Part shown: in pieces, positions 2,331 through 62,727 of the stretch | Layout of the letters: each line of letters begins with the position of its first letter | Numbering within the stretch: the first letter of the stretch is position 1 | From: Actinomycetes bacterium | Lineage (GTDB): Bacteria; Actinomycetota; JAHEXW01 | DNA length: 64,000 nucleotides | Assembly: GCA_023251915.1 (NCBI GenBank) | Contig: JAHEXW010000002.1 | Coordinates: 46,529 to 110,528, forward strand | Reading direction: 5' to 3' | Program-made: the position numbers and the translations under genes | Notes under the pieces: generated by a model | What the model saw: only the letters and a program-made list of their open reading frames with translations | What the model was told of the DNA's origin: nothing | Database searches by the model: none

Positions 2331-3188
2331 CTAAAATCCACTTCCGTAGTTGTGGATACTTGGCAGAATGTAGTTGACGAAATAGGTAAAGAGAGCGGCT
2401 AAAAAACCGACGATGATGGCCGCGCTGGCTCGCCGGCCGCGCCAACCCAAAAACAAACGACCCGCAATGTATCCGCCGAAGACGGCCCAGGTGACGACGG
2501 CCGACAGGATCTTTGGGTCAGAGTACCAAGCCTGCCAGGCGGGCAGCATCTGGGCCCGCAAGGCTCCGGTGATGATGACGAGGGTCAAAAAGAGAAACGA
2601 GACGGAGGTCGCTTTGTAGGCCAGGCTGTCCAGTGTTTCGAGGGGCGGGAACTTGCGAAACACGCGCCCCAGCCGTTTCTTCTTCTTAAGCCGGTTTTCC
2701 TCGACTATCTGCAGAACCGCGGCCGCCAGCGCGACGGTCAACGCGCCATAGGCCAGCAGTGCCAACAGAACATGCACGACGACCCAGACGCTCTTGAGGG
2801 CCGGCGTGATTGTGTATTCCAGTCCGTAACCGGCCCAGGCCCAGAACTGCAAGACCAAAACGGCCGGCATGACCAGCATACCGGCTGCCTTAATGCGCGG
2901 CATCCGGCCGGCGTACAGCGATTCACTGATCAGATAGGCGCCTAGTAAACAAAGTGCGTACACGGCGCGGGTTCCGAATTGAATACCGAACTCGGTCAGG
3001 CCAAAGTACAGCCATTTGACGACGAGAGACGCCGATAACAACGCGAAAGCGGCAACACCAAGGTCGCTGGACAGAGACTCAAGGCGATCGCTTTCGCCCT
3101 CAGCGAAGAAATTGCGGACATAGAATATTGCGCTGGCCGCGGCGGCGATCAATGCCAACCAAAAGAAGACGGTTACGAGATTATTCAA
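2331..3188 (-). CDS. hemX: HemX-like membrane protein of the cytochrome c assembly (CcsA/ResC) family
   Basis: 285 aa, polytopic. Carries a degenerate WWD-type motif, AWQAWYSDPKILSAVVTW. It sits immediately upstream of hemA, as hemX does in Bacillus. Appears to use a TTG start. Confidence 0.6.
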   Translation of the reverse strand: MNNLVTVFFWLALIAAAASAIFYVRNFFAEGESDRLESLSSDLGVAAFALLSASLVVKWLYFGLTEFGIQFGTRAVYALCLLGAYLISESLYAGRMPRIKAAGMLVMPAVLVLQFWAWAGYGLEYTITPALKSVWVVVHVLLALLAYGALTVALAAAVLQIVEENRLKKKKRLGRVFRKFPPLETLDSLAYKATSVSFLFLTLVIITGALRAQMLPAWQAWYSDPKILSAVVTWAVFGGYIAGRLFLGWRGRRASAAIIVGFLAALFTYFVNYILPSIHNYGSGF

Positions 3189-3369: not shown

Positions 3370-4065
3370 TTATTTCCCTCCGTTTTCGATGGCGTCTTTG
3401 ACGTCGCGCAAGCCGTCTTGCATGTTTTCGATATCGATCTTTACCAACAGGAGCGCGACATATAGCAACGTAAAGCCAAGCATCGACAGCAGCAGCCAGA
3501 TGTACATGCTGGGTTCAAGGCCCGAATCTTTTGCCCCGATCACGACCGGGTGCAGGACGTTCTTGATTAAGCGCGTGGACAAGAACGAGACGGGCACGTC
3601 TAGGGCGGCGATAATGCCAAAGACCGCGGCAAACGTTGCTTGCCGGCTGCGCTCGGTCACCATGGAGCGCAAGAAGAAATACGCCCCGAAAAGCAGCAAT
3701 AGGATGAGGTAGGTCGTCAGTCGCGGGTCCCAGGTCCACCAGACGCCCCAGGCGAGATAATCCCAGGTCATTCCGAATACCATCAAAACGACACCGAACA
3801 CCAGCCCCAGCTCAGCCGAGCAATACGCCGCTACGTCATACTTCAGTTCCTTCTTGATGAGATACATAACGCTAAAGACCAGCGTCGCCAGGAACGCGAT
3901 GAAACTCAAGATGGCCACAGGCAGATGCCAATAGAATATCTTCTGTGAGAAACCGGTCTGGGCCGCCGGCAGCACCGGCTCGACCACGAAGATGCCATAG
4001 AGTGAGATAACCAACAGGACGCCAGCCAGAATTGAAAGCCCTATCGTAATGTTTTTCCGGTTCAT
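3370..4065 (-). CDS. ccmC: Heme exporter protein CcmC
   Basis: Canonical WWD motif WGVWWTWDPRLT, with flanking His residues in YWHLP and VLHP. The start was moved to the internal ATG at 4065 (MNRKNITIGL), which has a GGAG Shine-Dalgarno. The longer track ORF would overlap the ccmB 3' end. Confidence 0.85.
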   Translation of the reverse strand: MNRKNITIGLSILAGVLLVISLYGIFVVEPVLPAAQTGFSQKIFYWHLPVAILSFIAFLATLVFSVMYLIKKELKYDVAAYCSAELGLVFGVVLMVFGMTWDYLAWGVWWTWDPRLTTYLILLLLFGAYFFLRSMVTERSRQATFAAVFGIIAALDVPVSFLSTRLIKNVLHPVVIGAKDSGLEPSMYIWLLLSMLGFTLLYVALLLVKIDIENMQDGLRDVKDAIENGGK

Positions 4066-4105: not shown

Positions 4106-4789
4106 CTACTCACCAATCACGAAATCATAAAGTGCGTATCCGGCCAGGAGGAATATTATATCAAAAGCGATGATCAAATATAGCCAAGAGCTCATGTCAA
4201 CGGCCGCCGTACCCCCCATGATGAGGGCGTTTGTATAGGAAACCACCTGCATCATGAACGGTGTCATAACCGGCAGATATAGGATCGGCAGCAGTAGATC
4301 ACGCGCCCGGGTATTGGCCGATATTGTTGCCAACAGCGTACCAACGCCACAAATCCCCAAATCGCCGAGCAGTAAGACCATCGCCAGCTTGAGGGCAGCT
4401 GCGCCCGTTAATCCGCCCAGAAAAAAGAGCGCGAAGATCGGCACGACGATTACTTGTAGAACGATAAGGAAAATCAGATTGCCCGCTAGTTTCGCCAGAA
4501 AGATGACCGGGCGATCGACCGGCGTCAGCAACAAGCCGTCCAAGCACTGCTCATCCTTCTCATGAACAAAGCTGCGGTTAAGGCCGAGCAGGGACGTGAA
4601 CAGCACGGCGACCCACAACATTCCCGCGGCAACCGGTGTCAGGTCCTTAAGGTTCGGCGAGAACGCGAAATGGAAGATGACCAGCGCCATGATGCTGAAC
4701 AGGAAGGTCGACGTAAAGACATCCTTGCTGCGGATCTCCAGCAGAAGATCCTTGCGCAGAATGGCCCAGAACTGCTTAGTCGCACTCAT
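4106..4789 (-). CDS. ccmB: Heme exporter protein CcmB (ABC permease)
   Basis: Starts MSATKQFWAILRKDLLLEIR. Six-transmembrane-helix CcmB-like hydrophobic profile. Its start overlaps the ccmA stop by 14 nt. The track ORF runs further upstream inside ccmA. Confidence 0.85.
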   Translation of the reverse strand: MSATKQFWAILRKDLLLEIRSKDVFTSTFLFSIMALVIFHFAFSPNLKDLTPVAAGMLWVAVLFTSLLGLNRSFVHEKDEQCLDGLLLTPVDRPVIFLAKLAGNLIFLIVLQVIVVPIFALFFLGGLTGAAALKLAMVLLLGDLGICGVGTLLATISANTRARDLLLPILYLPVMTPFMMQVVSYTNALIMGGTAAVDMSSWLYLIIAFDIIFLLAGYALYDFVIGE

Positions 4790-5507
4790 TGCTGTCTCCC
4801 GTGACGCAGACGCGCCGGTAGGTAGCCTTGAGTTCGGCGGGGTCTGGCCGGTCGGCGGAATCGTAAACGATCTGGCCGTTCTTGAGGATGATTGCCTTGG
4901 TTCCCAGCTCCAGACTGCGTTCAAGGTTATGCGTGACCATGACAAAAGTATGGTCGGCCCGCAGCTCCTCAATGATGCCGTCCAGAATATCCACGGCGTG
5001 CGGATCGAGCCCGGTTTGTGGTTCATCCAAAAAAAGCAGTTCGGGGCGATGCAGCAGCGCGCGCGCTATGGCCAAGCGTTGAAACATACCGCGGGAGAAA
5101 TCGCGCACGGTGTCGTAACGCCGGTGGGTAAGCTCGACCCGTTCGAGCAGTTCCGTAATGCGGTCGTCCAAGTCTTCCACGCCGTACATCTCGCCATAGA
5201 AGCGGAGGTTCTCATAGGTCGTCAGGTCACGATAGAGAAGATGGCTGTGGGAAATGAAACCGATACGACGGCGAATCTCAGTCGGGTCGCTCTTTAGGGA
5301 ATAGCCGAGGACAGACGCGTCGCCGGCAGTTGGCGCCAGCAGTGTTGCCAGCACGCGCAGCAGGGTCGTCTTCCCCGCGCCGTTAGGGCCAAGCAGGAGC
5401 AGAAACTCGCCGCGATCCAGCGTCAGATCGATACCCGCCAAAATCGCCCGCCGGCCGAAATTCTTGGTTAAGCTTCGGACCTCTAGCGCCGGGCCAGCCG
5501 TGTTCAT
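4776..5507 (-). CDS. ccmA: Heme exporter ATP-binding protein CcmA
   Basis: Walker A GPNGAGKTTLLR, ABC signature SRGMFQRLAIARAL, Walker B LLFLDEP. Confidence 0.9.
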   Translation of the reverse strand: MNTAGPALEVRSLTKNFGRRAILAGIDLTLDRGEFLLLLGPNGAGKTTLLRVLATLLAPTAGDASVLGYSLKSDPTEIRRRIGFISHSHLLYRDLTTYENLRFYGEMYGVEDLDDRITELLERVELTHRRYDTVRDFSRGMFQRLAIARALLHRPELLFLDEPQTGLDPHAVDILDGIIEELRADHTFVMVTHNLERSLELGTKAIILKNGQIVYDSADRPDPAELKATYRRVCVTGDSNECD

Positions 5508-7495
5508 TTTGCCGGGGCGCCCGGCCGTTTCGGCACCACGGCGATGATGACGCCTAGGATTAGCAGTATACTGCCGGCCCAGACAAAAGAGATCAAGGGG
5601 TTGATCTTGACCTCAAAAATCAGCTGATTGGAGTTGTTGATTCCCTGGAACACCATGAAGATATCGCGGAACGGTTGAATAATCACGTCGGCGTTCATGC
5701 CGGGTTGCTCTCGCACCGTATAGTAGATGTAGGCTGGTTCGGCGTTTCTTAGCGCGTGGCCGTTCTCGTCGACAACCTTAAAGACTGTGGTGTTGATCTC
5801 TTTTCCCGTTCCCTTGGTTTGTTCATAACCCTGATAGGTGAATTTCATTTTACCGGCGCTGAAGCTGGCGCCCTTTTTGTCCGCCAGAGTCTTGGACAGT
5901 GACACCGTGTACATCGAGCTGCCGATCAGGCCGATGACGACGATCGCCAAACCGAGGTGGGTAATAAACCCTCCGGCTTGCCCGGGTGTCTTCATGAAGA
6001 AACCGCCAACCGCCGCTGCGAGGCCTTCCCCGCTCTGCATCCTCTGCCTGATCTTGCTGCCGTATATCTGGCAAGCAGCAGCGATGGCAAAGGTCGCGAC
6101 GACAAAACCGACGTACCCGAGCCAACCGTTGGCCGGCAAGACCTGCGTCGGATTGACCGATTTAACCATCGCCTCCAGGCTCTTCCAATAGAAGTACCAC
6201 GGCACAGCGCTAACCAAAGCGATTACTCCCGGAACAAGCGCCCGCCGGCCGAATTTCATCAGGTTCGTCTCGCCAAAGCTGAGTAAAGGACAGACAGAGA
6301 TCAAGAACAAAAGAACGATACCGAGAGGTTGCGCGATCGCCGAATAAACGCCCGCTCCGACCGTCTGTTTGGTGATTTGCGGCAAGAACGCGCCAACTAG
6401 AATGATCAGCGAGCAGAATATGAGCAAGATGTTGTTGATGTGATAGACGGCGTCACGCGACAGATACGACTGGAAAATGTGCTTGCTCTCAAAGGCCTGC
6501 CACCGGTTGAAAAGCAGATAGCCGGTAACGCCCAGGACGGTGACGATGACGGCCGCATAGTAGACGAGAATGGCCGTTGTGCCTTCAAAGCTGTGTACCG
6601 ATTGAACGATGCCCCCGCGAGTCATGAACGCCGCCATTATGACCATGAAGAAGGCGAAAACGCTCATCGACACCGCCCAGCGTTTGAAACTCTGACGTTG
6701 GCGGTAGATGTGGAACGAATGCAGGAGCGCTGTGGCGCCTAGCCATGGTAACAAGCTGGCGTTCTCAACCGGATCCCAACCCCAGTAGCCGCCCCAGCCC
6801 AGAACGACATAGGCCCAGGCCGCGCCGAGAAATATGCCGAGCGACAAGAACAGCCAGCCGACGAGCGTCCACCGTTGGCTGCGCTCAACCCAAGCTGGCG
6901 AGGCGTCGCCGGTAAGCAGCGCCGCGAGCGCATAGGCAAACGGCACCGTCATCAGCGCGTAGCCCATGAACAACGTGGGAGGATGGAGGACCATCGCCCA
7001 GTGCAGCAGCAGCGGATTGATTCCCAAACCGACCGTGACGGCCGCGATCTTAAAGGGGTTGCCCAAGACCAGCATGAAGGCCAGCATGAATGCCTGGACG
7101 GCGCTCATGACCATCAGGGCGTTGCTCGTGAGAACGTCATAGACATGGGAGCGCAGGTAGGCGATCAGCGCCGCCGCGCCTGATACGAACCACAACCACA
7201 AGAGGAACGAACCCTCCTGGCCGGCCCAGAACGCGCTGATGCGATAGAACAGGCTCATGTCCGCGCTGGAGTTGGCGGCGACGTAATCAAACGAATAGAC
7301 CTTGGCGATGAAACCGTAGAGCAGGATCAGGCAGGCCAGGGTGACAAACCCGAATATGGCATAAACCATTTGGTACGGGAGCTTCATTTGATGCTCGGGC
7401 GAACCCGTCCTACCGGAGCGTACGTAGAGAAGAGTGACTGCCGACACAGCTGCTATGGCGGCTAAAACCAGGGCGATATACCCAAGGTACGTCAT
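5504..7495 (-). CDS. ccmF: Cytochrome c-type biogenesis protein CcmF (heme lyase component)
   Basis: 663 aa, polytopic. WWD motif WGGYWGWDPVENASL. Confidence 0.9.
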   Translation of the reverse strand: MTYLGYIALVLAAIAAVSAVTLLYVRSGRTGSPEHQMKLPYQMVYAIFGFVTLACLILLYGFIAKVYSFDYVAANSSADMSLFYRISAFWAGQEGSFLLWLWFVSGAAALIAYLRSHVYDVLTSNALMVMSAVQAFMLAFMLVLGNPFKIAAVTVGLGINPLLLHWAMVLHPPTLFMGYALMTVPFAYALAALLTGDASPAWVERSQRWTLVGWLFLSLGIFLGAAWAYVVLGWGGYWGWDPVENASLLPWLGATALLHSFHIYRQRQSFKRWAVSMSVFAFFMVIMAAFMTRGGIVQSVHSFEGTTAILVYYAAVIVTVLGVTGYLLFNRWQAFESKHIFQSYLSRDAVYHINNILLIFCSLIILVGAFLPQITKQTVGAGVYSAIAQPLGIVLLFLISVCPLLSFGETNLMKFGRRALVPGVIALVSAVPWYFYWKSLEAMVKSVNPTQVLPANGWLGYVGFVVATFAIAAACQIYGSKIRQRMQSGEGLAAAVGGFFMKTPGQAGGFITHLGLAIVVIGLIGSSMYTVSLSKTLADKKGASFSAGKMKFTYQGYEQTKGTGKEINTTVFKVVDENGHALRNAEPAYIYYTVREQPGMNADVIIQPFRDIFMVFQGINNSNQLIFEVKINPLISFVWAGSILLILGVIIAVVPKRPGAPAK

Positions 7496-7510: not shown

Positions 7511-7915
7511 CTATTTGGTTACGATTGGCTGATTCTCGTATTTTGACGGACATTTGGTCACCAAGGATTCGGCTTCGACCAGACCCTTTTTCTTGTAGGT
7601 GCCCTCGGCAATGACCTGGATATTGTCCGCGAAAGTCGCTGGCAAAGCGCCGTTATAGGTCACTGTGATCTGGTTCTTGGAATCGGTTATCTTGAAAGTG
7701 GCCTTGGTTCCGCTCTTGACTATCGTCTTCGGTATGACCTTCCCGCCGACCCGAACCGACTTGCCGATCAGCGTCGAATCGTTGTTGATCTCTGTCACCG
7801 TCTTAAAATACGACAGGTTATTGCCGCCGCGTGTGGCCGAGTACAACAGGATGGCCAGCAAACCAAGGATAATAACGGTCACAACGACCAGGCGGTTTTT
7901 GCTTCGTTTCTCCAA
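7511..7915 (-). CDS. ccmE: Cytochrome c maturation heme chaperone CcmE, Cys variant (CxxxY in place of HxxxY)
   Basis: N-terminal transmembrane anchor and CcmE OB-fold. The C-terminal motif is VTKCPSKYEN where canonical CcmE has LAKHDENY. The start is probably a TTG at 7915 with an AAGAGG Shine-Dalgarno. The track uses a GTG at 7924. Confidence 0.8.
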   Translation of the reverse strand: MEKRSKNRLVVVTVIILGLLAILLYSATRGGNNLSYFKTVTEINNDSTLIGKSVRVGGKVIPKTIVKSGTKATFKITDSKNQITVTYNGALPATFADNIQVIAEGTYKKKGLVEAESLVTKCPSKYENQPIVTK

Positions 7916-8038
7916 ACTAATCACCTCTTGAATGGGACAAAAAGAAATGCCGACCTTAAAGCGTGTGATGAGCGGCAGGCATCTCTATAAATGTAACAAG
8001 TTTTAGGCTAAAAGACAACGTCCAAGCTGGGGAGCAGG

Positions 8039-8632
8039 CTATTTCTTCCCTTTATTGTAATGACATATCTCGCACTTGACTGGTGCCTTCCTGGCCTTAT
8101 GGCAGGAGATACAGTCCTTCATCTGAACTGTGTTCTTGGCCTTCGGGGTCTGGTCGTGAACCAAGTTTTTGTGACAATCGACGCACTTGTACGGGTTGCC
8201 TTTCATCTTGTGATGCCCGGAAGGCAGCTTGAGGTCGTTTTGCATTGTGATCTTACGATGCTCGGCGTGGCACACAATGCAGTTGGCGTTGGGTACGGAA
8301 GGTCCGGCCTCTGCCGCGTCGGGACGGAAAACGATCGCGACAACGATCTGGCGAAACAGGGCGCCTTTGGCGACGCCCCAGCCGATAATCCCCGAACCGC
8401 TATGACAAGACAAACAGCCTGCCTTCGCGTGCGTCGATTTTGTCCAGGTGGCGTAATACGGCTTCATTACGTGGCAAGTGCCGCAGAAGCTATCGCGAGA
8501 CGTGTAGACGGAAGGTATTCCGATGATCAGGATCAACAGAAGCGCCAAACCAAACAGCGGCGTCCAGCCTTTTAGGCCGCGGCGCGGCGCGCGGCGAGAT
8601 GGCCGGCCTAGCCGGTTGGAGTCAGCCGTCAC
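8039..8632 (-). CDS. Membrane-anchored hexaheme c-type cytochrome (NapC/NirT/NrfH-like)
   Basis: 197 aa with an N-terminal transmembrane helix. Six CxxCH motifs: CGTCH, CLSCH, CIVCH, CVDCH, CISCH, CEICH. Its start overlaps the stop of the upstream CcmC-like gene. Confidence 0.8.
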   Translation of the reverse strand: MTADSNRLGRPSRRAPRRGLKGWTPLFGLALLLILIIGIPSVYTSRDSFCGTCHVMKPYYATWTKSTHAKAGCLSCHSGSGIIGWGVAKGALFRQIVVAIVFRPDAAEAGPSVPNANCIVCHAEHRKITMQNDLKLPSGHHKMKGNPYKCVDCHKNLVHDQTPKAKNTVQMKDCISCHKARKAPVKCEICHYNKGKK

Positions 8633-9306
8633 TTTGGTTCCCCTTTGCTCGTAAGGCGGCGGACCAAAAGGACGGAAATGATCGCCGCGGCTGCCAAGGA
8701 AATGAATATACCTAAAGTATCATACTTAATCAGGGAGCTAGATGAATTACTAATTGGATTCGTGGTCGGATGCATTACGGCGGGGACGCGAGCCACCAGT
8801 ATCCAGACAACCACGCCCATGACAACGTTAAGAAAGCTGATGATCTTCGGCTGTTCGAAAACCGTCTCCAAGAGTGCGATGGCCACCAGCGTTACCAAGA
8901 TGGAGGCGGCCAAAAGGAACCGCGGTTCAGTCCAGATGATTCCGCCCCAGGCTAGCTTCATGGCCAGGACGCTGGAGGTTATATAGACAAACCAAAAGAT
9001 GAGCGTGACCGCTTTGGCCGGCTGAGACCATTCAAAGAAGACCCGGCGACCCGTCGCCAGATGAAGCAAACCCAATAAGCCGACAACGGAAACTAGTGCC
9101 ATGCTGACGAAGACCAGGGCGGCGTGGAAGTAGATCAATTTGGCGGCATCACCCAATTGCCGCTCGGCAGGCGCCAGCCAGGCCAGCAGAACAGCACAGG
9201 CGACACACACACAAAGCCCGATTCCCAAGACAAGCGTGGCACCTCGGCGGTTAGCGACTGCGGTGTTAGTCACCGTGCCCCTGTCCCGCGACCATTTCCA
9301 GCGCAT
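8629..9306 (-). CDS. Divergent CcmC/heme-handling (WWD family) paralog
   Basis: Six predicted transmembrane helices. KLIYFHAALV aligns with YWHLPVAIL of the ccmC at 3370. WGGIIWTEPRF aligns with WGVWWTWDPRL. A conserved His in VMHPTT aligns with VLHPVV. The start is uncertain because it overlaps the mogA 3' end. Confidence 0.55.
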   Translation of the reverse strand: MRWKWSRDRGTVTNTAVANRRGATLVLGIGLCVCVACAVLLAWLAPAERQLGDAAKLIYFHAALVFVSMALVSVVGLLGLLHLATGRRVFFEWSQPAKAVTLIFWFVYITSSVLAMKLAWGGIIWTEPRFLLAASILVTLVAIALLETVFEQPKIISFLNVVMGVVVWILVARVPAVMHPTTNPISNSSSSLIKYDTLGIFISLAAAAIISVLLVRRLTSKGEPK

Positions 9307-9745
9307 GCGGCAAGACCGGCAACAAAACAGCCATCTGTTCGCGCACTGCTTTTAGGCTCCCGGGAAGGTTTATGATCAGGGTTTTGTCACGCTGGCCCGC
9401 GACGGCTCGGGACAACATCGCCTGGGGCGTTATCTCCAGGCTTTTTTGGCGCAACGCCTCGGTGATTCCGGGCGCGGGCCGGTTGATAACTTCGGCCGTC
9501 GCTTCCGGCGTTACATCGCGCAGCGACAAGCCTGTGCCTCCTGTTGTCAGAACCAAATCAACCAGTTTTATGTCAGCGTAAATAATAAGCTTAGCCCGGA
9601 TGGCCTCGTAGTCATCCGCCACGATGTCGGCGGCGACTATGTCGGCGCCCATATCCAGCATTGCTTGTTTAAGGAAGGCGCCACTGGTGTCTTCCCGCTG
9701 ACCAATGCTGCCCTTGTCGCTGACAGTAAGAATTGCCGCTTTCAC
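9266..9745 (-). CDS. mogA: Molybdenum cofactor biosynthesis protein MogA/MoaB
   Basis: Begins VKAAILTVSDKGS and contains LVLTTGGTG. The GTG start was chosen at 9745. Confidence 0.8.
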   Translation of the reverse strand: MKAAILTVSDKGSIGQREDTSGAFLKQAMLDMGADIVAADIVADDYEAIRAKLIIYADIKLVDLVLTTGGTGLSLRDVTPEATAEVINRPAPGITEALRQKSLEITPQAMLSRAVAGQRDKTLIINLPGSLKAVREQMAVLLPVLPHALEMVAGQGHGD

Positions 9746-10182
9746 GCCAGCACCTCTATCTTGTCCCCCGGTTTGATATCGCCGGGCGTCAGCACGATTG
9801 TGAATATTCCTTCCCGCGGCATCACGCAATCACCGACCTGCTTACGGATTTCACACGACAGATGGCACTCCTTGCCGATCTGGGTGACTTCCAGCTCAAC
9901 CGTGTCCCCCACCCGCAGCTTGGTGCCGACTGGAAGCTTGGCAACCTCGATGCCGATGGTCGTGATATTCTCCGCGAAATCGCCCGGCTGGAGTTGGATA
10001 TTCGTTAGGCCGGCCTGCATTTTGTCGACGCTTTCCTGCGCCAGCAAGCTGACCTGGCGATGCCAATCGGCGGCGTGCGCATCGCCCGCAATGCCGTGAT
10101 CGACGACCATCGTTATTGTTGGCACAGAGTGTTTCTTGATGCCTCTCTTCTCACTTATGTTTACAGCTACTACCTCTGCCAT
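9742..10182 (-). CDS. MOSC domain protein (YiiM-like)
   Basis: Starts MAEVVAVNISEKRGIKK. MOSC beta-barrel with a conserved Cys in GKECHLSCE. Confidence 0.7.
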   Translation of the reverse strand: MAEVVAVNISEKRGIKKHSVPTITMVVDHGIAGDAHAADWHRQVSLLAQESVDKMQAGLTNIQLQPGDFAENITTIGIEVAKLPVGTKLRVGDTVELEVTQIGKECHLSCEIRKQVGDCVMPREGIFTIVLTPGDIKPGDKIEVLA

Positions 10183-11733: not shown

Positions 11734-13047
11734 CTAGTGATCCTCTGGAAGCGTGATCAGGTGAACCGTTACCGACGAGCCGGCCGGCATGGACTCTGCA
11801 TCGGCCGGAATAAAAGCCAAACCGTCCGCCAGGACCATCGACCGCAAGATGCCCGACCCTTGCGGACCGGTGCTGTCGACCAGGTATTCGGCCCCTTTTT
11901 TATCCACGTGAACACGGATTATATGTACGCGACCGGGGCGTTTTCTAACGCTCGAGACTAGCGTACCGGTAACCGCCGGGCGAAATAGCAAGCGCTGGCC
12001 CATCAGGCGGCGCAGCATCGGGCGCACATATTCCTCGAAGCTCACCATCGCCGCCACCGGGTTTCCCGGCAAGCCAAAGATGTGCCTGTTCTTGAAGTTC
12101 CAATAGCCGAGCGGCTTGCCCGGCTTCTGCGCCACTCCCCAAAACACCTTGGCGGCGCCTATGTCAGCCAAAACGTCTTTAACATAATCATACTCTCCAA
12201 CCGAGACACCGCCGGTTGTCAACAGCACATCGCACTCTGCCAGCGCCTTTTGAAACAACTCCCGAGCGGCCGCGGGCGTGTCCGCGGCGATGCCATAGCG
12301 CACCGGTATCGCGCCGGCTTGTTTGATCTGGGCGGCCAGGGAATAAGCGTTGCTGTTGCGAATCTTGCCGGGCTCCAGCGGTTGATCGATTTCCAGCAAC
12401 TCGTCGCCGGTCGTGATAACGGCGACGCGCGGCCGGTGATAAACCGGGACTTTGGGAAAACCCAAACTAGCGAGCAAGCCGATGTCGGCCGGTCCCAGAG
12501 TCTGGCCCGCGGCCAGTACTATTTCTCCCGGCTTGACGTCTTCCCCGGCCAACCGGACGTTTCTGCCGGCTGGAATAGAGCGCAACACCAGGACCGGCGA
12601 TAGTTTGTCTGACGCGGCCGGCGCGCGCTCGAATGCAGCGCGCTCTCGCCCGGCTTCTGTCATAGTATCTTCTACTCGGATAACGGCGTCGGCTCCAGCC
12701 GGCACCGGGGCGCCGGTCATGATGCGAACCGCTTGGCCTGTCTTAACCGGAACATTGGCAACATCACCGGCTTTGACGTCCGCGACAACCGACAGATTCA
12801 CCGGTGATTCCGGCGTCGCGTCGGCGATATCGGCCGCCCTGACGGCGTAACCATCCATGGCTGAGTTGTTAAATGAAGGAATGGCGTCACGGCTCACGAT
12901 ATCGGCCGCCAAAACCAAACCGAGCGCGTCATCCAGGGCCGTCTCGCACGCCGGCAACGCTTCGGTGCTTGCCATTATTAGGTTATGCGCTTCCTCTATC
13001 GAAATCATTAATTCCCCGTTTGCTCTTGGTGCTGTGGTTCCCACCAA
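11734..13047 (-). CDS. moeA: Molybdopterin molybdenum/tungsten-transferase MoeA
   Basis: 437 aa with MoeA N, MoCF-binding and C-terminal domains. Contains GGVSVGEYD. Confidence 0.9.
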   Translation of the reverse strand: MVGTTAPRANGELMISIEEAHNLIMASTEALPACETALDDALGLVLAADIVSRDAIPSFNNSAMDGYAVRAADIADATPESPVNLSVVADVKAGDVANVPVKTGQAVRIMTGAPVPAGADAVIRVEDTMTEAGRERAAFERAPAASDKLSPVLVLRSIPAGRNVRLAGEDVKPGEIVLAAGQTLGPADIGLLASLGFPKVPVYHRPRVAVITTGDELLEIDQPLEPGKIRNSNAYSLAAQIKQAGAIPVRYGIAADTPAAARELFQKALAECDVLLTTGGVSVGEYDYVKDVLADIGAAKVFWGVAQKPGKPLGYWNFKNRHIFGLPGNPVAAMVSFEEYVRPMLRRLMGQRLLFRPAVTGTLVSSVRKRPGRVHIIRVHVDKKGAEYLVDSTGPQGSGILRSMVLADGLAFIPADAESMPAGSSVTVHLITLPEDH

Positions 13048-14890: not shown

Positions 14891-15073
14891 CTAGAAGCAC
14901 CCCAACGAACAACCCATGACCTTTATTTCCAGCTCGTTGCAGGCCTTGCCGACAACCGTGTAGGGCAGGCCCAATCTTTCGGCGATCTCGCGCGCTTCGG
15001 GACAAGTGATCTTGCCCCCGGTTGCTGCAGCCTTTACCGCTTCCGCCAGTTCCGTTTTCTTCGCAGCGTCCAT
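14891..15073 (-). CDS. Small conserved-looking protein of unknown function; first ORF behind the riboswitch candidate
   Basis: 60 aa: MDAAKKTELAEAVKAAATGGKITCPEAREIAERLGLPYTVVGKACNELEIKVMGCSLGCF. Strong AAGGAG Shine-Dalgarno. Has a possible helix-turn-helix-like stretch and a C-terminal GCxxGC. I do not recognise the family. Confidence 0.4.
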   Translation of the reverse strand: MDAAKKTELAEAVKAAATGGKITCPEAREIAERLGLPYTVVGKACNELEIKVMGCSLGCF

Positions 15074-15096: not shown

Positions 15097-15262
15097 GACA
15101 AAAATAAACGCGCTTCCCCGCATAGTGGAAAGCGCATTCAGAGAACACACTTCTCTCCTTTCCAAGCGCGGGAGGCACAGAAATCGCTCGCTGTACCCTT
15201 TCCCGACTCAATCAGCCGGGATGCCCTCGCCGTCCGCGTGGGTGCGGCGAGGGTCGGAGAGT
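15097..15262 (-). ncRNA. Candidate riboswitch (probably Moco/Tuco class) with an intrinsic terminator, copy A
   Basis: Shares conserved blocks with copy B, in minus-strand reading order: CTCCGACC, CGAGCGATT, GCCTCCCG, TTGGAAAGGAG. Then a GC hairpin (15108-15134) and a U-tract (15098-15107). It sits upstream of the small ORF, tupB, tupC and moeA. Confidence 0.5.
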
Positions 15263-15436
15263 TTGTATGATTTGTTGCAATCTATGCTTTGAGAATACCA
15301 GGGTCGGCCCGGCTAAGTCAAGAGCCAAACACCGGCGTATGGCGGCCCACCAGCATTTAGTATTACAATGGTCGCGTCACCAGTCGACTTCATTACTCCA
15401 TTTAAGTGAAGTAATGAAGTATCAAGAAAGGGAACA

Positions 15437-17808: not shown

Positions 17809-18699
17809 TTAAGGGTTCCCTGTTGCCGCGCTGGGCGTGAACAAAGCCTGGCCGTATTTGGCCTTCCCGAACTTGCCGATGAGCTTTTGAACCTCGGGTG
17901 ATGTGATCCAGTCGACGAACTTCTTGGCGTCGACCTCGTTCACCTTGGCAAACTTCGCGTTGTTGACGATGATCACGCCATACGGATTGAAGAGGTCTTT
18001 CTGGTCCTCGACCAGTATCACCAGGCTGATGGATTTCTGAAGAGACAGAAACGTTCCGCGGTCGATCAGGATATAGGCCTGCTTTTCGTTGGCGATCTTC
18101 GCCGCCTCTCCCATGCCCTGCCCGACGTTAACGTACCAATCACCGGCGGGCGTAAGGGCAGCCTTTGTCCAGATCGACAACTCTTTAGTATAGGTGCCGG
18201 AGTTGTCGCCGCGGGTCACGAACGGCGCTTGCGCGGCCGCAATAGCCGCGAACGCTTTGGCGGGACTAGCGCCCTTGATACCGGCTGGATCGCTCGCCGG
18301 GCCGATAATCACGAAGTCGTTATACATTACGTCCTTGCGCAGAGAACCGAAGCCGTCTGCCATGAATTTGTCTTCTTTTGCCCGGGCGTGCACTAATAGA
18401 ACATCAGCTTCACCGCGCTGACCCATCGCAATCGCCTCGCCGGTTCCCACAGCGATTGGCTTTGTCTTGACGTTATATTTCTTGTCAAACATCGGCAGCA
18501 GATAATCAAGCAGGCCGGTATCGGCTGTGCTGGTGGTCGTCGCCAGAATCATGTTTGTCGCCGGCGGGAGCGGCTTGGCCGCCTGTTTCGTTTCCGTCTT
18601 TGTCGCACAGCCGAACGCTCCGATTGCCAGAAATAGTCCCAGAACAACCGCGGCCAGTGTTCGCAACATCGTCTTTTTCGTGCTTCTCAGCCCTTTCAT
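17809..18699 (-). CDS. tupA: Tungstate ABC transporter substrate-binding lipoprotein TupA
   Basis: Signal peptide with a lipobox-like GAFGC. Diagnostic TupA TTTS motif in ILATTTSTADTGLLDYL. Confidence 0.85.
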   Translation of the reverse strand: MKGLRSTKKTMLRTLAAVVLGLFLAIGAFGCATKTETKQAAKPLPPATNMILATTTSTADTGLLDYLLPMFDKKYNVKTKPIAVGTGEAIAMGQRGEADVLLVHARAKEDKFMADGFGSLRKDVMYNDFVIIGPASDPAGIKGASPAKAFAAIAAAQAPFVTRGDNSGTYTKELSIWTKAALTPAGDWYVNVGQGMGEAAKIANEKQAYILIDRGTFLSLQKSISLVILVEDQKDLFNPYGVIIVNNAKFAKVNEVDAKKFVDWITSPEVQKLIGKFGKAKYGQALFTPSAATGNP

Positions 18700-18727: not shown

Positions 18728-18898
18728 TAATAAAAAACGCGCTGCCCAAGGAAAAGGATAGCGCGCGTCAATAGACTATTCGTCGCTCCTTTCCAAATTC
18801 GGGAGGCGGGTCGATTGCTCGGCCCACCCTGACTCCCGGCCAAAACCCGGCCGGTCGATCGCCCCGGACATCCCAGAGGGACGGACGGGGTCGGAGTA
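18728..18898 (-). ncRNA. Candidate riboswitch (probably Moco/Tuco class) with an intrinsic terminator, copy B
   Basis: Same conserved blocks as copy A, in minus-strand reading order: CTCCGACC, CGAGCAATC, GCCTCCCG, TTGGAAAGGAG. Then a GCGCGCT/AGCGCG hairpin (18737-18768) and a U-tract. It sits immediately upstream of tupA. Confidence 0.5.
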
Positions 18899-19010
18899 AT
18901 ATTCGATTGTGACTAGAGGTTATCAGGCTTGTAACATATGTGTCAAGGAAATTGGGTAAGCAATTATCGCAAGATAGCTATGGTCTTGCATTTATCCGAG
19001 ACAGACCGGT

Positions 19011-22514: not shown

Positions 22515-25500
22515 CTATCGTACCGTTACCACGGTCGGTTGCGACCAGCCGGATACCGTGCCGTTGGCAACAACGGTCTCGACCTTAGTCTCATAGTTTC
22601 CAGCTAACGACCACGTGTGCGTCTCTATAGCCGGCCACATATTAAAAATCTCGGCGGTTGTGTAGAATCTTGTCGTCGTTGTCGACCCGTCTCCCCAAGC
22701 GAAAACGAATCTGATCGGCTCGAAGATAAGCCTGTTGGCAAGAACCGCGGTGTACGTGGCACGCGTGTTGCACACGACGGCCGCCGGGCCTGTCGGCGTC
22801 AAAGGAACAGGCAGCGGCGTCTGGTTGATAGTAATCCTCAGCGGTAATGACGTTTCCGATTTCGCTCCCCGCGCGTCTGTCGCCTTTACCAAAACGGTAT
22901 AGACGCCTACCTCGTTCCAAATGTGAGTGATTTCGCCGGCCATTCCCGACGGGCTCGTACCTGTCGAGCCGGACGTTCCGTCGCCCCAATCAAATGTGTA
23001 GCCTACTCCATCACCGTCGAGGTCGGTAGCTAAGGCGGACACCGAAACCGGCCGCTTGGCGAAACCGGTCGGACCGCCTACTATATTCGGGATCCCGGGT
23101 GCGTGATTAATGCCGACGGTCAGCGCCTCCGACCACCCGGTCCAGCCATCGGTGCTAGCGTCTCCGACTCTGACTTTGACCGCGAATTCGCCGCCTGTCG
23201 GCCAGTGATGGGAGAGACTAGCCGTCGCGCCAGACGACACGCCAGCGGTTTCGCTCGTTGTTCCGTCACCCCAGTCAAAAACATAGGTTAACGAATCGCC
23301 GTTGGCGTCTTGCGCCACGGTCGTGTAGGTAAGCTCGTCGCCGGGATTAGCGGAGACGGGCCCGTCCGGTCGCGCGGGAACGCCCGGCAGTTCATTTCTG
23401 ACCGCCACGCGCTTGGGCTGAGACCAGACGGATACGGCACCCAGATCGTTGGCGGCGCGAACCCTGACGTCATACTCTTCCGTCGCTGCAGCTGTTATTC
23501 GTTGCCAAATATGCGGAACTGATACCAGTGTTCCGGAAGATACTGCGGCAGTGGTCTCGGTCGTTCCGTCACCCCAGTCAAACGTATAGCATACGTTACG
23601 GCCGGCCGGGTCACGCGACGCCGCTGCGTACCCAACCGACTGACCAAACAGGACCGACGCCGATCCGGATGGCGCCTGCGGCACGTCCGGGGCACCGCAA
23701 ATCTGAATCACTGTATCCTCCATCGCCCAACCCGAGGACAAGCCCCACACGTCAGTCGACCTGATCTTTATGGTAAACAATCCGGCGGACGCCCAGGCGT
23801 GGGACATTGAAACTTCGGTCCTTGACTCGACAGATTCGCTCGTACTGGTCGTACCGTCGCCCCAATCGAACGTAAAAGCCAACCGGTCATCATCCGGGTC
23901 ATAGCCAGCCGTGTTGAACGAGTAGCTTTGGCCGGTAATTCCCAAGCTCGGCCCGCCGGCACTGGCGGGCGGCATAGGCGCCTGGTTAATAAAAACGCTG
24001 GCCGGCGGAGACCAACCGGATGTTACGCCCAGTTCATCCACCGCTCTAACCTTGACCTGGTATGTGCCCCCTAGGTTCCAGGTATGACTGAGGGTTGCTC
24101 CGACACCGCCGGATGCCAGCAAGGCTGATTCATCGGTTCCGCCATCGCCCCAATCGAAAACATACTTTACTCTGTGGTTGTCCGGGTCGGTCGTAACGGC
24201 CGAAAAACTCCCGCTGGCGCCTAACTCCACAGCCAGGGGACCCTGCGGTTTGGCCGGCGTTAGCGGCGTTGAGTCATGAGCCGTAATATTCAGGGAAGAG
24301 CACCAACCGGATGCCGCGCCGGTCGAATCAATGGCCTTTACCTTAACCAGATAGGCTCCGCCGGCCGGCCACACATGCGTCGCGGTACCGTAGATGTTTG
24401 AGCTATATTCCCAGTAGGCATAGTACCTAGTCGTGGTCGTCGTACCGTCGCCCCAATCGAACAGGTATTGAATGTCCTGGTGTTCCGGATCACTCGACCG
24501 GGCGCGATAGGAATATTCCAACCCGACGGTTGCGGCTGATGTACCGGACAGGTTCGACGGTGTCCCGGGCGCCCGGGTCAGAATGGTGACAGACAGTGTC
24601 GATGACCAGACGGACGCCGTGTTATAGATATCGGTTGCTTTGACCTTAACCGCGTAGACCCCGCTGGCCGGCCAGCTGTGGGAGGCGGAGGCGGCCGCAC
24701 CCGAAGCCAGAGCGTTAGTGTCCGTAGTCGTTCCGTCGCCCCAGTCGAACGTGTATATCAGCTGGTCAACGTTGCCATCTGTGGTGCTGCTGGTATACGT
24801 TGCCGGAGTTGCCGTGTACATCGACGCCGTGCCGCTAGGAGTTGCCGGTTTAACGGGTGCGACATTGTCGGCTGGAAAAACGTACACCGTCGCGGTCGAA
24901 ATAGTCGATCGCGCTCCAAACTGATCCATCGCCCGCAACCGTACCGTATATGTGCCCTTGGTTGTCCAGGTGTGCGTTGCGGCGGCGGTACTGCCCGACC
25001 CAAGCCAACCGGTCTTGCTTGTCGTTCCGTCGCCCCAGTCGAACGTATACTGGATTTGATCGCCCTCGGGGTCGGATGACGAAGTGTTAAAGGAACCGGT
25101 CAGGTTCTGACCCACCCGTATGTCACCCTGCAGCGCGGCCGGCGCCGTCGGTCCGTGGTCAATGATATGGATCTCGTTGACGTTTGACCACGCAGAAACC
25201 CGGCCGTCTTGGGTTATGGCCTTGGCTTTAACCTGGAACAGGCCCGGCGCGGTCCAGGTGTGCGCCAGCGTGACCGTTCCGCCCGAATACGTCTGGAAGG
25301 ATGTGTCGGTTGTACCGTCTCCCCAATCGAAGACATATGTCATCGGCCGGCCGGCGCCATCGGTGGTAGCTGTGCTGAAATTAACGGAAACGCCCTTGAA
25401 ATAGGTTGTAATCCAGTATTGGTCCAGTTCGGGAATACCCGGCGCGGGCGGAGCCTCCAGCCTGACGGTGACCCAAGTGGCCGCGGACCAGGCCGATACG

Positions 25501-28427
25501 AGTCCCGTGGCATCGGTTGCCTTGACCCGGACAGGATAGACACCGGGAGCTGTCCAAGCATGGGCCTGGGACATCGAAAATCCCGGATATTCTGCCCAGC
25601 TGGTCGTTGACGTACCATCGCCCCAGTCAAATACATATGTAACCCGATTCTGATCAGGGTCGTCACTTGTAGTTGTGTAGCCGACTAGTTCGCCCGTATA
25701 GGCATTGACGTAACCAGTCACAACAGGCACAGTTGGCGGATGATTGGCGGCAGCCACTGTTACGCTGGTCGGCGGACCCCAATCAGACGTCTGACCGTAT
25801 GAATCAGTCGCCTTGACCTTGATACTATAAGAACCCGTCGCCGTCCAGATATGCGAGGTGAAGGGGCAATAGTTGTAAGGGTAGTCACCAATCGACGTTG
25901 TCGTGCCGTCACCCCAGTCTATCGTGTACGAAATCTCGTCCTGGTCTGCATCGCCGCAGTTGCTAAGCGTAAAACGCGCTTCCACATCCGGCGCCGCGGT
26001 CGAACTGCCTTGCATGGCCGGTGCGTTGGGCAAGTTGTTCGCACCCGTTATTATCATCGACAGCGGATCAGACCAAGCCGAACTCTCGCCGTCAGCCGCC
26101 ACCGTCTTAACCCGAAGAGCGTACGTTCCCGCGGCGGCCCAGGTGTGCGACGTGCCCAGCGCCGACCCCATCCACCAGTCGACATTGTAAAAGGTAGTCG
26201 AGGTCTGCGGTGTACCGTCGCCCCAATCAAACACTAGTTTAAGATCCCTATAGAATAAGTCTTGCGCCCATGCAAAATAGTTCCTAGTAGTGTTGGGCGG
26301 CAAATGGGTTTTTCCGAACGGTGTACCGGGCGTGGTTATAGGCGCTCCGACGTCAATCTCGACCGGACTTGACCAAGACGACGTCTCGCCGTCCGCGTTT
26401 ACCGTACGCGCCTTTATGAAATAGGCGCCCGCGGCGGTCCAGGTATGGTCGGCCTGAACGAAATCGACGCTCATCATGTATTCGGAAAACGCATAGAGAC
26501 GCGTCGTTGTCGTCGTTCCGTCGCCCCAATCGATGACAACCCGGCACGGTTCCAGATTGTAATCCATCACCTGGAGACCATAATTGCAATATTGGTTGAC
26601 GCGCAGCCAGACACTGCCGGTTGTGAACATCGGCGGTTCCGGGGTCCGCGGAACAGTCACGTGAGCGACGGCAACGACATCGTGACCATCGAGATCGGTA
26701 ACCGTTAGTCTGAGTTCGTATATCCCGCCGGACAGGCCGGTCGCGTCCCATGATCCAAGGCTTCCATTGGAAACGGGTGTCGCCGAACTGGTGACCGTAT
26801 GCCAGGCGGCCGGGGTTGTTCCGGCGCCCCACTCCAGCTTGAAGGAGGCGAACCGAGGGCCGGTCGCCGTACCGGTAATCGCCACGACGTCTTTTGCGAC
26901 GCCGCTGTCCACGGGCGAAGAAATAGCGGCTTTTGTCTGGCCGGCCTGCAACGCGGCTGCGGCGTTGATTCGGCCGTAGCCATAATATTGGTCCCAACCG
27001 GGGGCTCCCTTGTCATCTGCGGTTTGTTCAATCATGTATTGCAGGTCGGCGGGGCTCGCGTCCGGATAGCGGCTTTTCAACAGCGCCGCGACGCCGGATA
27101 CGCTGGGGCAGGCCATTGAGGTGCCGGACAACGTTCCATAGCCGTGGTTATCTCCTAAGGAAGAAGTCTCAAATGTCGGCAACGTCGAATAGATGCGGGA
27201 GCCGGGGGCTGCGACATCAACGAACGGCCCGAAATTAGAGTAGCTGGCCCTGGTGTCGTTGTGGTCGGTCGCGGCGACAGTCAACACATTCTCCAAATCT
27301 GCCGGGTAGAAAAGACCCTCGCTATTTTCGTTACCGGCCGCGCCCACTACCAGACAGCCCGCGCCCGTCGCATCGTTTACGGCGTCCTGCAGCGCTTGGC
27401 TGTAACCGCCGCCGCCCCAGCTGTTGTTGATGATGTCAGCGCCATGTGCTTGCGCATAACGAATCGCTTTGACCGCGTCGGACGTCAGCCCGCTGCCATT
27501 CCACTCTAGGAACTTAAGCGGCATGATCTTGACGTTCCAGTTCACGCCGGTGATGCCAAACCCGTTATTACCGCAAGCGCCGATGATGCCGGACACGTGG
27601 GTGCCGTGCCCGTGGTCGTCCAGGGGGTCCGCGCAAACTGTCTTGTACAGTACGGGGTCCGCCCAGCCGTAGGCGAAACACCAACCTCTAACGTCATCGA
27701 TATAACCGTCGTGGTCATCATCAAGATTATTCGTCGCCATATCACGACCCTGCGCGTCGATTCCCATTTCGCCGGCGTTGGTCCAAACGTTACCGGCTAG
27801 ATCGGTATGGGTGTAGTCAATGCCGGTGTCGATTACGGCAACTATGACGTCCGTGCTGCCGGTCGTAGTATCCCAAGCCGTCGTGGCCTTAATATCGGCG
27901 CCGCTCGTCCCGCCCGTCTGACCGGTATTCTTTAAGTTCCAGAGCTTGCTGAAATCGGTGTCGCTGGGTATCGTTTCGCAAGTATGGACGACGTAGTCCG
28001 GCTCGGCATAAGCGACTGTCGGGGATTGTTTTAACGTCGCATCGGCCTGCTTAACGCTGGTTCCCTTTTTCAAGTGAACAATAGCTACGTCGCTGTCGCC
28101 GATTGTTTCTTCGATTTTGCCGATCGGTGCTACAGCGGCGGCGATTTCAGCCTCGCTGGCGGACGACTTAAAACTAACAATGATTTGGTCAGATTTGTAC
28201 TCTACGTCTGTGTCCTTGATAACCGCGTTTCCGCTTAGAGAAATTCTGGCTGCAGACGGGGTTGCCCGAGAGTCAAGCACTGGCTTTTGTGGCAAGTCGG
28301 GAGAGGCGGATTGCCGATTGCGCAATTCCGTGAGGCGAGTCGGCGCGGCCTGAGGTTTGCCGGACAGCACAATAAGGATGGCTAAAACAGAAGCGACTGC
28401 TCCAAAAAATACTATCGTCCGCCGCAC
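22515..28427 (-). CDS. Secreted S8 subtilisin-like serine peptidase carrying 14 tandem PKD-like domains (1970 aa)
   Basis: Signal peptide, a probable I9 inhibitor propeptide, and the catalytic triad DTGID (D200), HGTHVSG (H275), GTSMACP (S436). Then 14 repeats of about 93 aa, each built around [YF]xFDWGDGT. Confidence 0.85.
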   Translation of the reverse strand: MRRTIVFFGAVASVLAILIVLSGKPQAAPTRLTELRNRQSASPDLPQKPVLDSRATPSAARISLSGNAVIKDTDVEYKSDQIIVSFKSSASEAEIAAAVAPIGKIEETIGDSDVAIVHLKKGTSVKQADATLKQSPTVAYAEPDYVVHTCETIPSDTDFSKLWNLKNTGQTGGTSGADIKATTAWDTTTGSTDVIVAVIDTGIDYTHTDLAGNVWTNAGEMGIDAQGRDMATNNLDDDHDGYIDDVRGWCFAYGWADPVLYKTVCADPLDDHGHGTHVSGIIGACGNNGFGITGVNWNVKIMPLKFLEWNGSGLTSDAVKAIRYAQAHGADIINNSWGGGGYSQALQDAVNDATGAGCLVVGAAGNENSEGLFYPADLENVLTVAATDHNDTRASYSNFGPFVDVAAPGSRIYSTLPTFETSSLGDNHGYGTLSGTSMACPSVSGVAALLKSRYPDASPADLQYMIEQTADDKGAPGWDQYYGYGRINAAAALQAGQTKAAISSPVDSGVAKDVVAITGTATGPRFASFKLEWGAGTTPAAWHTVTSSATPVSNGSLGSWDATGLSGGIYELRLTVTDLDGHDVVAVAHVTVPRTPEPPMFTTGSVWLRVNQYCNYGLQVMDYNLEPCRVVIDWGDGTTTTTRLYAFSEYMMSVDFVQADHTWTAAGAYFIKARTVNADGETSSWSSPVEIDVGAPITTPGTPFGKTHLPPNTTRNYFAWAQDLFYRDLKLVFDWGDGTPQTSTTFYNVDWWMGSALGTSHTWAAAGTYALRVKTVAADGESSAWSDPLSMIITGANNLPNAPAMQGSSTAAPDVEARFTLSNCGDADQDEISYTIDWGDGTTTSIGDYPYNYCPFTSHIWTATGSYSIKVKATDSYGQTSDWGPPTSVTVAAANHPPTVPVVTGYVNAYTGELVGYTTTSDDPDQNRVTYVFDWGDGTSTTSWAEYPGFSMSQAHAWTAPGVYPVRVKATDATGLVSAWSAATWVTVRLEAPPAPGIPELDQYWITTYFKGVSVNFSTATTDGAGRPMTYVFDWGDGTTDTSFQTYSGGTVTLAHTWTAPGLFQVKAKAITQDGRVSAWSNVNEIHIIDHGPTAPAALQGDIRVGQNLTGSFNTSSSDPEGDQIQYTFDWGDGTTSKTGWLGSGSTAAATHTWTTKGTYTVRLRAMDQFGARSTISTATVYVFPADNVAPVKPATPSGTASMYTATPATYTSSTTDGNVDQLIYTFDWGDGTTTDTNALASGAAASASHSWPASGVYAVKVKATDIYNTASVWSSTLSVTILTRAPGTPSNLSGTSAATVGLEYSYRARSSDPEHQDIQYLFDWGDGTTTTTRYYAYWEYSSNIYGTATHVWPAGGAYLVKVKAIDSTGAASGWCSSLNITAHDSTPLTPAKPQGPLAVELGASGSFSAVTTDPDNHRVKYVFDWGDGGTDESALLASGGVGATLSHTWNLGGTYQVKVRAVDELGVTSGWSPPASVFINQAPMPPASAGGPSLGITGQSYSFNTAGYDPDDDRLAFTFDWGDGTTSTSESVESRTEVSMSHAWASAGLFTIKIRSTDVWGLSSGWAMEDTVIQICGAPDVPQAPSGSASVLFGQSVGYAAASRDPAGRNVCYTFDWGDGTTETTAAVSSGTLVSVPHIWQRITAAATEEYDVRVRAANDLGAVSVWSQPKRVAVRNELPGVPARPDGPVSANPGDELTYTTVAQDANGDSLTYVFDWGDGTTSETAGVSSGATASLSHHWPTGGEFAVKVRVGDASTDGWTGWSEALTVGINHAPGIPNIVGGPTGFAKRPVSVSALATDLDGDGVGYTFDWGDGTSGSTGTSPSGMAGEITHIWNEVGVYTVLVKATDARGAKSETSLPLRITINQTPLPVPLTPTGPAAVVCNTRATYTAVLANRLIFEPIRFVFAWGDGSTTTTRFYTTAEIFNMWPAIETHTWSLAGNYETKVETVVANGTVSGWSQPTVVTVR
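22518..26630 (-). repeat. Coding tandem repeat array (about 280 nt period) encoding the PKD domains of the S8 peptidase
   Basis: Fourteen recurrences of the FDWGDGTT-encoding unit at roughly 93-codon spacing. The DNA copies are divergent. Confidence 0.6.
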
Positions 28428-60098: not shown

Positions 60099-60184
60099 TC
60101 TCTATTATACATCTGGATTCCTGTGTTATACTTGAAATACTGTTGCCTAGTAACAAGCGCTACAAGCGCCTATCGGAGGTCGCA

Positions 60185-62665: not shown

Positions 62666-62727
62666 TTTGCTAGAATAGTAGCGGTGCCGCAAGTCCGGCA
62701 CGCGTCTTTTCACACCTAGGGGGCGAT

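Follow-up and report, generated by a model that had tools for sequence, protein, structure and literature searches.

Members of the haem-handling protein family are defined by three elements, P-His1, WWD and P-His2, and the first tryptophan of the WWD element is required in CcmF (PMC10746174). In recent work CcmCD has been argued to form the actual channel for haem, in place of the CcmAB ATPase (PMC12077264). A streamlined form of System I cytochrome c maturation (Ccm), termed CcmE(Cys) and arranged as ccmEFABC(D), is known from Desulfovibrio and archaea (PMC9084895). Such a cluster occurs in a stretch of 64,000 nucleotides (hereafter the window) from an Actinomycetes bacterium (assembly GCA_023251915.1, contig JAHEXW010000002.1, positions 46,529 to 110,528), where it is preceded by two adjoining genes: one for a divergent CcmC-like membrane protein, here called X, and one for a hexahaem cytochrome c, here called Cyt6 (Table 1). 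Within the haem-handling superfamily, X belongs to an old branch without annotation and is closest to CcmC. On the sequence evidence it is probably a stand-alone CcmC-type protein for haem binding or haem trafficking, rather than a private helper of Cyt6.

X shares with CcmC (E. coli structures 7F02 and 8CE1) a six-helix fold and topology, two outward-facing histidines, the W-G...(D/E)-P-R frame and the K-x-x-Y-x-H motif. In Actinomycetota its gene also lies in or beside a ccm operon (the window and the related loci L001 to L004, L010, L094 and L096). It differs from CcmC in being some 20-30 amino acids (aa) shorter, in forming a separate clade on a long branch, in falling below the PF01578 and TIGR01191 thresholds and in being mostly encoded away from ccmAB, ccmD and ccmE, while coexisting with a canonical CcmC in the same operon. 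An extra haem-handling gene adjoining a multihaem cytochrome gene is known from NrfE of the NrfEFG set, which serves CxxCK sites, and from CcmF2 beside MHC-B of anaerobic methanotrophic archaea (PMC9012536). These, however, are CcmF-type lyases for non-canonical sites or giant cytochromes, whereas X is of CcmC type, the neighbouring sites are canonical, and the X family is not generally linked to a cytochrome. HemX/CcsA-like proteins of the Bacillus type offer a further comparison, being haem-handling membrane proteins found in a haem-biosynthesis context without forming part of a lyase; Bacillus HemX is a CcsA-like protein reported to control the level of HemA. One such protein is encoded in the window, but it is a clear PF01578/CcsB match with the eight-helix CcsA architecture, while X is CcmC-like and escapes PF01578. 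The ccm cluster of the window agrees with the CcmE(Cys) systems in its order, in a CcmE with CxxxY and in the lack of ccmH and ccmG within the cluster. It differs in that no X-like protein has been described in those systems, and in its host, an actinomycetotal lineage known only from metagenome-assembled genomes (MAGs).

Homology between X and CcmC becomes visible only through profile-profile, family hidden Markov model (HMM) and fold comparison. By BLASTP, X is 22% identical to the CcmC of the window, with an expectation value (E) of 0.12, and a sequence-profile search of the PDB with the alignment of close X relatives returned nothing even at E 10. The first-pass annotation had aligned X with the canonical CcmC, and the matches that it quoted (YxH, WG..W.EPR and HP) proved to be in register in the profile alignments. 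With hhalign, 20 close X relatives aligned to 24 CcmCs at a probability of 95.1% (E 3.4e-8), the first histidine, the WWD region and the second histidine all in register. A wider alignment of 41 X sequences reached 98.1% (E 7e-14), while reversed-sequence controls of identical composition remained below 1% (E 0.1-0.2). A search with CcmC-family models, which the same annotation had suggested, gave a divided answer. The HMM of the X family matches genuine CcmCs in four other loci (E 1e-11 to 1e-14), and PF01578 is reached by two of 41 X-family members, at best with E 1e-6. The X protein of the window, on the other hand, has no match in Pfam or NCBIfam, including PF01578 and TIGR01191, against 82.7 and 111.7 bits, respectively, for the CcmC of the window. 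AlphaFold2 models of X reached a predicted local distance difference test score of 83, and of 91.9 with a deeper alignment. X has six helices with cytoplasmic N- and C-termini, as in CcmC. A Foldseek search of the PDB with the model was significant only for the CcmC chains 7f02_C and 8ce1_C (E ~4e-5). The template modelling score was 0.68 for the former, with a root-mean-square deviation of 4.8 Å over 219 columns, and 0.65 for the latter; all remaining chains had E >0.2, six-helix cytochromes of the b561/Dcytb type standing at 0.25. X is almost certainly homologous to CcmC, and the alternative that it belongs to an unrelated membrane family found no support, as profile, HMM and fold each point to CcmC specifically.

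Both histidines that ligate haem in CcmC are retained in X. These, H61 and H179, which align to H47 and H172 of the window CcmC, are invariant in all 51 diverse X-family members, and so is P128; W120, E127, R129 and P180 reach 96% or more, and W125 is kept in 36 of the 51. In the alignment of 41 members, with a mean column identity of 28%, H61, P128 and H179 are again invariant, and the other four are at least 90% conserved. X and CcmC have in common P46, G52, K/R56, Y59, H61, W120, G121, E127, P128, R129, H179 and P180, and the conserved residues of X align to the P-His1, WWD and P-His2 elements (PMC10746174). The frame of the WWD loop is thereby retained as W120-G-x-x-x-W125-x-E127-P-R. The glutamate of the EPR motif is not in itself a deviation, since 15 of the 24 related CcmCs carry it too. 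The invariance of both histidines and of EPR, despite an identity of about 28%, argues for continued selection on a ligand site.

A word-indexed search yielded 22 close relatives of X (57-99% identity), all of them unnamed and from Actinomycetota MAGs, and comparison of the close X alignment with genome contigs found relatives in two genomes only. Exhaustive profile searching, by contrast, returned 420 cluster representatives (clustered at 50% identity; E <= 1e-3), nearly all of 190-230 aa. Their source names include Actinomycetota, Coriobacteriia, Ardenticatenaceae, Anaerolineales and Fodinibius/Aliifodinibius, always under the label "hypothetical protein", and no Pfam or NCBIfam model, source annotation or published description was found for the family. 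In a neighbour-joining tree, calculated without bootstrap, 51 X sequences form one clade with a star-like interior, on a long branch from 24 CcmCs. A recent duplication of the local ccmC was considered and rejected: the separate clade and the long branch speak against a recent origin of X from its neighbour. A complete canonical ccmEFABC set and a ccmD-like open reading frame (ORF) all lie downstream, which makes X an extra gene. The description of X as an extra, divergent CcmC-like protein is borne out.

The X gene is the minus-strand ORF of 225 codons originally reported, although its real start is probably the GTG at 9273, which corresponds to the start position of the orthologues and gives a protein of 214 aa. 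From this start X would overlap the end of moaB by 8 nucleotides (nt), GTGACTAA. At the other end, the reported overlap with the cytochrome gene is present as GTGA at 8629-8632, combining the TGA stop of X with the GTG start of Cyt6, which is preceded by the Shine-Dalgarno-like AAAGGGG. X is accordingly predicted to be co-transcribed with moaB and Cyt6, and is probably also translationally coupled to both. The pair sits, as described, between the Moco genes and the ccm operon, flanked by moaB and ccmE.

Cyt6 contains exactly six CxxCH motifs, in agreement with the earlier count, and neither CxxCK nor CXnCH sites. Its sequence marks it as a quinol dehydrogenase module of the NrfH type, anchored in the membrane and composed of an N-terminal transmembrane helix, four haem sites in the order found in NrfH and a C-terminal extension with two further haems, for which a weak c7-like similarity was seen. 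Residues 27-161 align to NrfH of Desulfovibrio vulgaris (2J7A, chain C; E 1e-8), and the alignment takes in each of the four NrfH haems. The first site is, as in NrfH, CxxCHxM, the sequence CGTCHVM being invariant in four orthologues. Unlike NrfH, Cyt6 has the two additional haems, scores 65.7 bits on TIGR03153 against a cut-off of 134.2, which places it below the NrfH equivalog, and lacks a neighbouring reductase gene, nrfA-like or other. The lack of a partner reductase noted in the first-pass annotation holds for the neighbourhood. A partner elsewhere in the window was sought among the large ORFs and rejected, these being an S8 protease, Mfd, PAS-HD regulators, a transglutaminase and methionyl-tRNA synthetase. 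The only other multihaem site in the window, ~54 kb from Cyt6, is a multihaem ORF following a carbon monoxide dehydrogenase (CODH)/prismane-family gene, possibly a CO- or hydroxylamine-linked electron-transfer module. Most metagenome relatives of Cyt6 (L015-L093) are N-terminal modules of 18-haem (~600 aa) or 11-haem (~470 aa) cytochromes, all with a CxxCHxM first site. These cytochromes are abundant, recur on many environmental contigs and look like a large family of multihaem proteins fused to a quinol dehydrogenase. In L020 (117-2060), a six-haem NrfH-like homologue of 207 aa lies directly downstream of a gene for an octahaem cytochrome of 425 aa, the kind of redox partner that is absent beside Cyt6 in the window.

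X and Cyt6 do not generally travel together. The order moaB-X-Cyt6-ccmE is conserved within a close clade (window, L001-L003, L004 and L010). In L094, whose CcmC is 54% identical to that of the window, MOSC-moaB-X (X HMM E 9e-57) is followed by a GT87 gene on the opposite strand and then by ccmEFABCD, without Cyt6. Ca. Aquicultor (L096, GCA_036504445.1) carries an X-family gene (E 1.7e-51) immediately upstream of ccmE and has neither Cyt6 nor Moco genes there; the motif of this X-family member, WGGNWWIEPR, is intermediate towards CcmC. Further afield, X is found between pyrH and frr in the Balneolales-type loci L007, L008 and L012, after a KAS III gene in the Ardenticatenaceae locus L006, and alone in L011 and L097/L098; neither ccm nor cytochrome genes are near X in L006-L008, L011, L012 and L097. 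The Balneolales-type loci L007, L008, L012 and L013 (8001-8627) have X in an otherwise universal rpsB-tsf-pyrH-frr-uppS-cdsA cluster, about 5 nt after pyrH, a conserved position. From the side of the cytochrome, a scan of metagenomes with the Cyt6 alignment gave 80 loci, 78 of which were informative for X, with L014 and one further locus outside the count, and X is encoded in none of these 78. The sole X-HMM match among loci with Cyt6 relatives falls on the true CcmC of L014, a locus truncated upstream of its Cyt6 and thus uninformative about X. The survey of co-occurrence proposed in the first-pass annotation speaks against a general association of the two. Seen from both directions, the pairing is limited to one lineage, which is best explained by a cytochrome gene inserted between X and ccmE.

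These results favour, with fair though not high confidence, the reading of X as a stand-alone protein. Given the strict conservation of the residues by which this family holds its haem (PMC10746174), X would bind haem b on the outer side of the membrane, between H61 and H179, and could then present or translocate it alone, needing neither CcmAB nor a private cytochrome. CcmCD alone can move haem to the WWD site without CcmAB (PMC12077264), which makes a stand-alone CcmC-like protein mechanistically plausible. In Actinomycetota, X would most likely help to provide haem for System I of the CcmE(Cys) type, a supporting role suggested by its position at the Moco/ccm junction and at the head of ccm operons. 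Outside this phylum it would act independently of Ccm gene neighbours. In the lineage of the window, the gene for an NrfH-type hexahaem menaquinol dehydrogenase would have entered between X and ccmE, and the simplest way to mature the six canonical sites of Cyt6 would be through the complete canonical Ccm set that follows directly downstream. On this view X and Cyt6 would be tightly coupled because they are expressed together from one operon for cofactor supply (Moco, haem handling, cytochrome, ccm and hem), and not as a dedicated pair.

Several observations weigh against this reading. The WWD motif is degenerate, as had been recognised: W101, W109, W110 and W112 are replaced, with W120, G121, E127, P128 and R129 retained. 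Three to four of the CcmC-invariant tryptophans, among them the first of the WWD element, have become aliphatic residues, and P49, R165, Q41 and F44, also invariant in CcmC, are missing as well. With these losses the positioning of haem in X could be altered or lost. Nothing in the gene contexts of X outside Actinomycetota (pyrH-frr, KAS III and cstA-smc) points to a role with haem. In L095, which carries a related ccm operon, a six-frame HMM search found no X and matched only the true CcmC, so this type of Ccm system can do without X; a gene missed there through frameshifts was rejected by the same search. In addition, the adjacency of X and Cyt6 is fully conserved in the clade of the window, where a clade-specific functional link is possible, and the 4-nt overlap is kept in three of four lineages (window, L004 and L010).

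A bolder extension, which we regard as tentative and would not put first, is that X represents a fourth, undescribed branch of the haem-handling superfamily, a minimal one present in several phyla (Actinomycetota, Chloroflexota, the Balneolales-type genomes and others), which would carry haem to the outer membrane face alone, without CcmAB, CcmD or CcmE, and serve acceptors besides or instead of System I. Candidate acceptors, were this true, would be extracytoplasmic b-type haem proteins, a haem efflux pathway or a loading route specific to CcmE(Cys).

Among the alternatives to a haem-trafficking protein, the one that survives best, unlikely as it is, takes X to be a sensor or regulator, or to have another membrane function without haem transfer, for instance a role like that of Bacillus HemX. 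It would accommodate the loss of most WWD tryptophans and of several CcmC-invariant residues, housekeeping contexts such as pyrH-X-frr that are unrelated to cytochromes, and a gene string in the window whose last members are a HemX-like gene and hemA/hemC. That string, however, already has a HemX-like gene of its own, and both haem-ligand histidines and EPR have stayed strictly invariant in a family of about 28% identity.

The first-pass annotation had proposed that X is a dedicated haem-delivery paralogue maturing the adjacent hexahaem cytochrome, as NrfE does for CxxCK sites or CcmF2 for MHC-B. The translational coupling through GTGA, the adjacency of X and Cyt6 in every close-clade member examined and the precedents for cytochrome-specific haem-handling paralogues (PMC9012536) all lend this some appeal. 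Yet all six haem sites are canonical CxxCH, so that no special lyase is called for, and a complete canonical Ccm set lies downstream. The family is old and predates the pairing, with X lacking Cyt6 in L094 and L096 and standing alone in other phyla, while Cyt6 relatives occur without X. Known dedicated paralogues are lyases of the CcmF or CcsA type, not of the CcmC type, and the overlap is replaced by a 77-nt gap in L001. A dedicated maturation factor for one hexahaem cytochrome is consequently an improbable role for X, and that proposal is probably wrong.

Very improbable, too, is that within the clade of the window X serves as a haem-b membrane subunit, a structural or redox partner of Cyt6 in a quinol-oxidising complex. 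Overlapping genes would imply stoichiometric co-expression, the bis-histidine site of X would lie at the outer face near the NrfH-type haems, and the model bears some weak resemblance in fold to six-helix b-type cytochromes (b561/Dcytb). These last matches are not significant, however. Proteins of the NrfH type (the 2j7a family) oxidise menaquinol unaided, a single haem at the outer face provides no transmembrane electron path, and members of the X family are mostly not found beside cytochromes. Finally, a coincidental resemblance between hydrophobic six-helix proteins, for which the poor BLASTP value and the lack of Pfam, NCBIfam and PDB sequence-profile matches might be cited, is refuted to near certainty by profile-profile, HMM and fold results all specific to CcmC, with reversed controls of the same composition below 1%.

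X and Cyt6 belong to a tightly packed string of minus-strand genes. In transcription order this comprises a molybdenum/tungsten cofactor (Moco) riboswitch, a 60-aa ORF, modB, modC, moeA, moaA, moaC, a MOSC gene, moaB, X and Cyt6, and continues 3' of Cyt6 with ccmE, ccmF, ccmA, ccmB, ccmC, a ccmD-like ORF, a CcsA/HemX-like gene, hemA and hemC (Table 1).

Table 1. Features of the X/Cyt6 locus and of the second multihaem site in the window (positions counted from the first nucleotide of the window).
Feature	Position	Strand	Remarks
Moco riboswitch heading the string	15140..15271	-	RF01055, 53.5 bits, E 5e-10
60-aa ORF between Moco riboswitch and modB	14891-15073	-	ends ...GCSLGCF; no Pfam match
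moeA	11734-13047	-	
MoaB/Mog-type Moco biosynthesis protein	9266..9829	-	overlaps X
X, divergent CcmC-like six-helix membrane protein	8629..9306	-	longest ORF 225 aa
Cyt6, 197-aa membrane-anchored hexahaem cytochrome c	8039..8632	-	GTG start
CcmE, Cys variant	7511..7924	-	TKCPSKY (CxxxY instead of HxxxY)
CcmF	5504..7495	-	WWD domain and CcmF_C
CcmA, ABC ATPase	4776..5507	-	
CcmB	4106..4789	-	listed ORF extends to 5026; MSATKQ start (4789) placed from orthologues
Canonical CcmC	3370..4065	-	PF01578 E 4e-23; WGVWWTWDPR
CcmD-like single-helix ORF, 52 aa	3210..3368	-	PF04995 E 0.0036, below cut-off
CcsA/HemX-like protein, between ccmD-like ORF and hemA	2331..3188	-	PF01578 E 8e-29; TIGR03144 E 2e-34, below cut-off
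CODH/prismane-family gene	60143-62158	+	PF03063 E 6e-165
Multihaem cytochrome ORF, runs off the window end	62674-64000	+	at least 4 CxxCH; weak cytochrome c554-like match

Four genes of the haem-handling superfamily, for CcmF, CcmC, X and the CcsA/HemX-like protein, thus stand in a single string. The CcsA/HemX-like gene is kept at the same place in L001, L004, L014, L094, L095 and L096, and an ORF of 49-59 aa occupies the ccmD-like position in L001, L094, L095 and L096. A ccmE of the CcmE(Cys) type occurs also in L001, L004, L010, L014 and L094, all from Actinomycetota MAGs, in operons that are again ordered ccmEFABC(D) and lack ccmH and ccmG. At the head of the string, a terminator-like stem (15140-15105) was seen by the Moco riboswitch, and an ORF of 60-61 aa was called at the position equivalent to that of the 60-aa ORF in L001 and L010. 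A second Moco riboswitch (18770-18908, minus strand) lies ahead of a PBP_like_2 solute-binding gene (17809-18699). The window further encodes a secreted subtilase of 1970 aa (22515-28427, minus strand) with a fervidolysin-type prodomain and at least nine PKD repeats.

Between the riboswitch-headed string and X, Cyt6 and the ccm genes, no evident or convincing terminator was found. A riboswitch-headed string running into ccm in this manner means that the cytochrome c maturation genes of the host organism may be under Moco control. The X family as a whole is a variant within a known superfamily and not a new kind of system. For annotation, its description means that about 420 clusters of "hypothetical" proteins could be named. 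The passage of haem across the membrane and its transfer to extracytoplasmic acceptors are still under debate. The family would bear on this question: with two ligand histidines, a skeleton WWD motif and usually no CcmA, CcmB, CcmD or CcmE encoded beside it, it would offer a natural means of testing what CcmC requires in order to bind and translocate haem. Furthermore, it could reveal a route of haem trafficking distinct from the three cytochrome c maturation systems already known.

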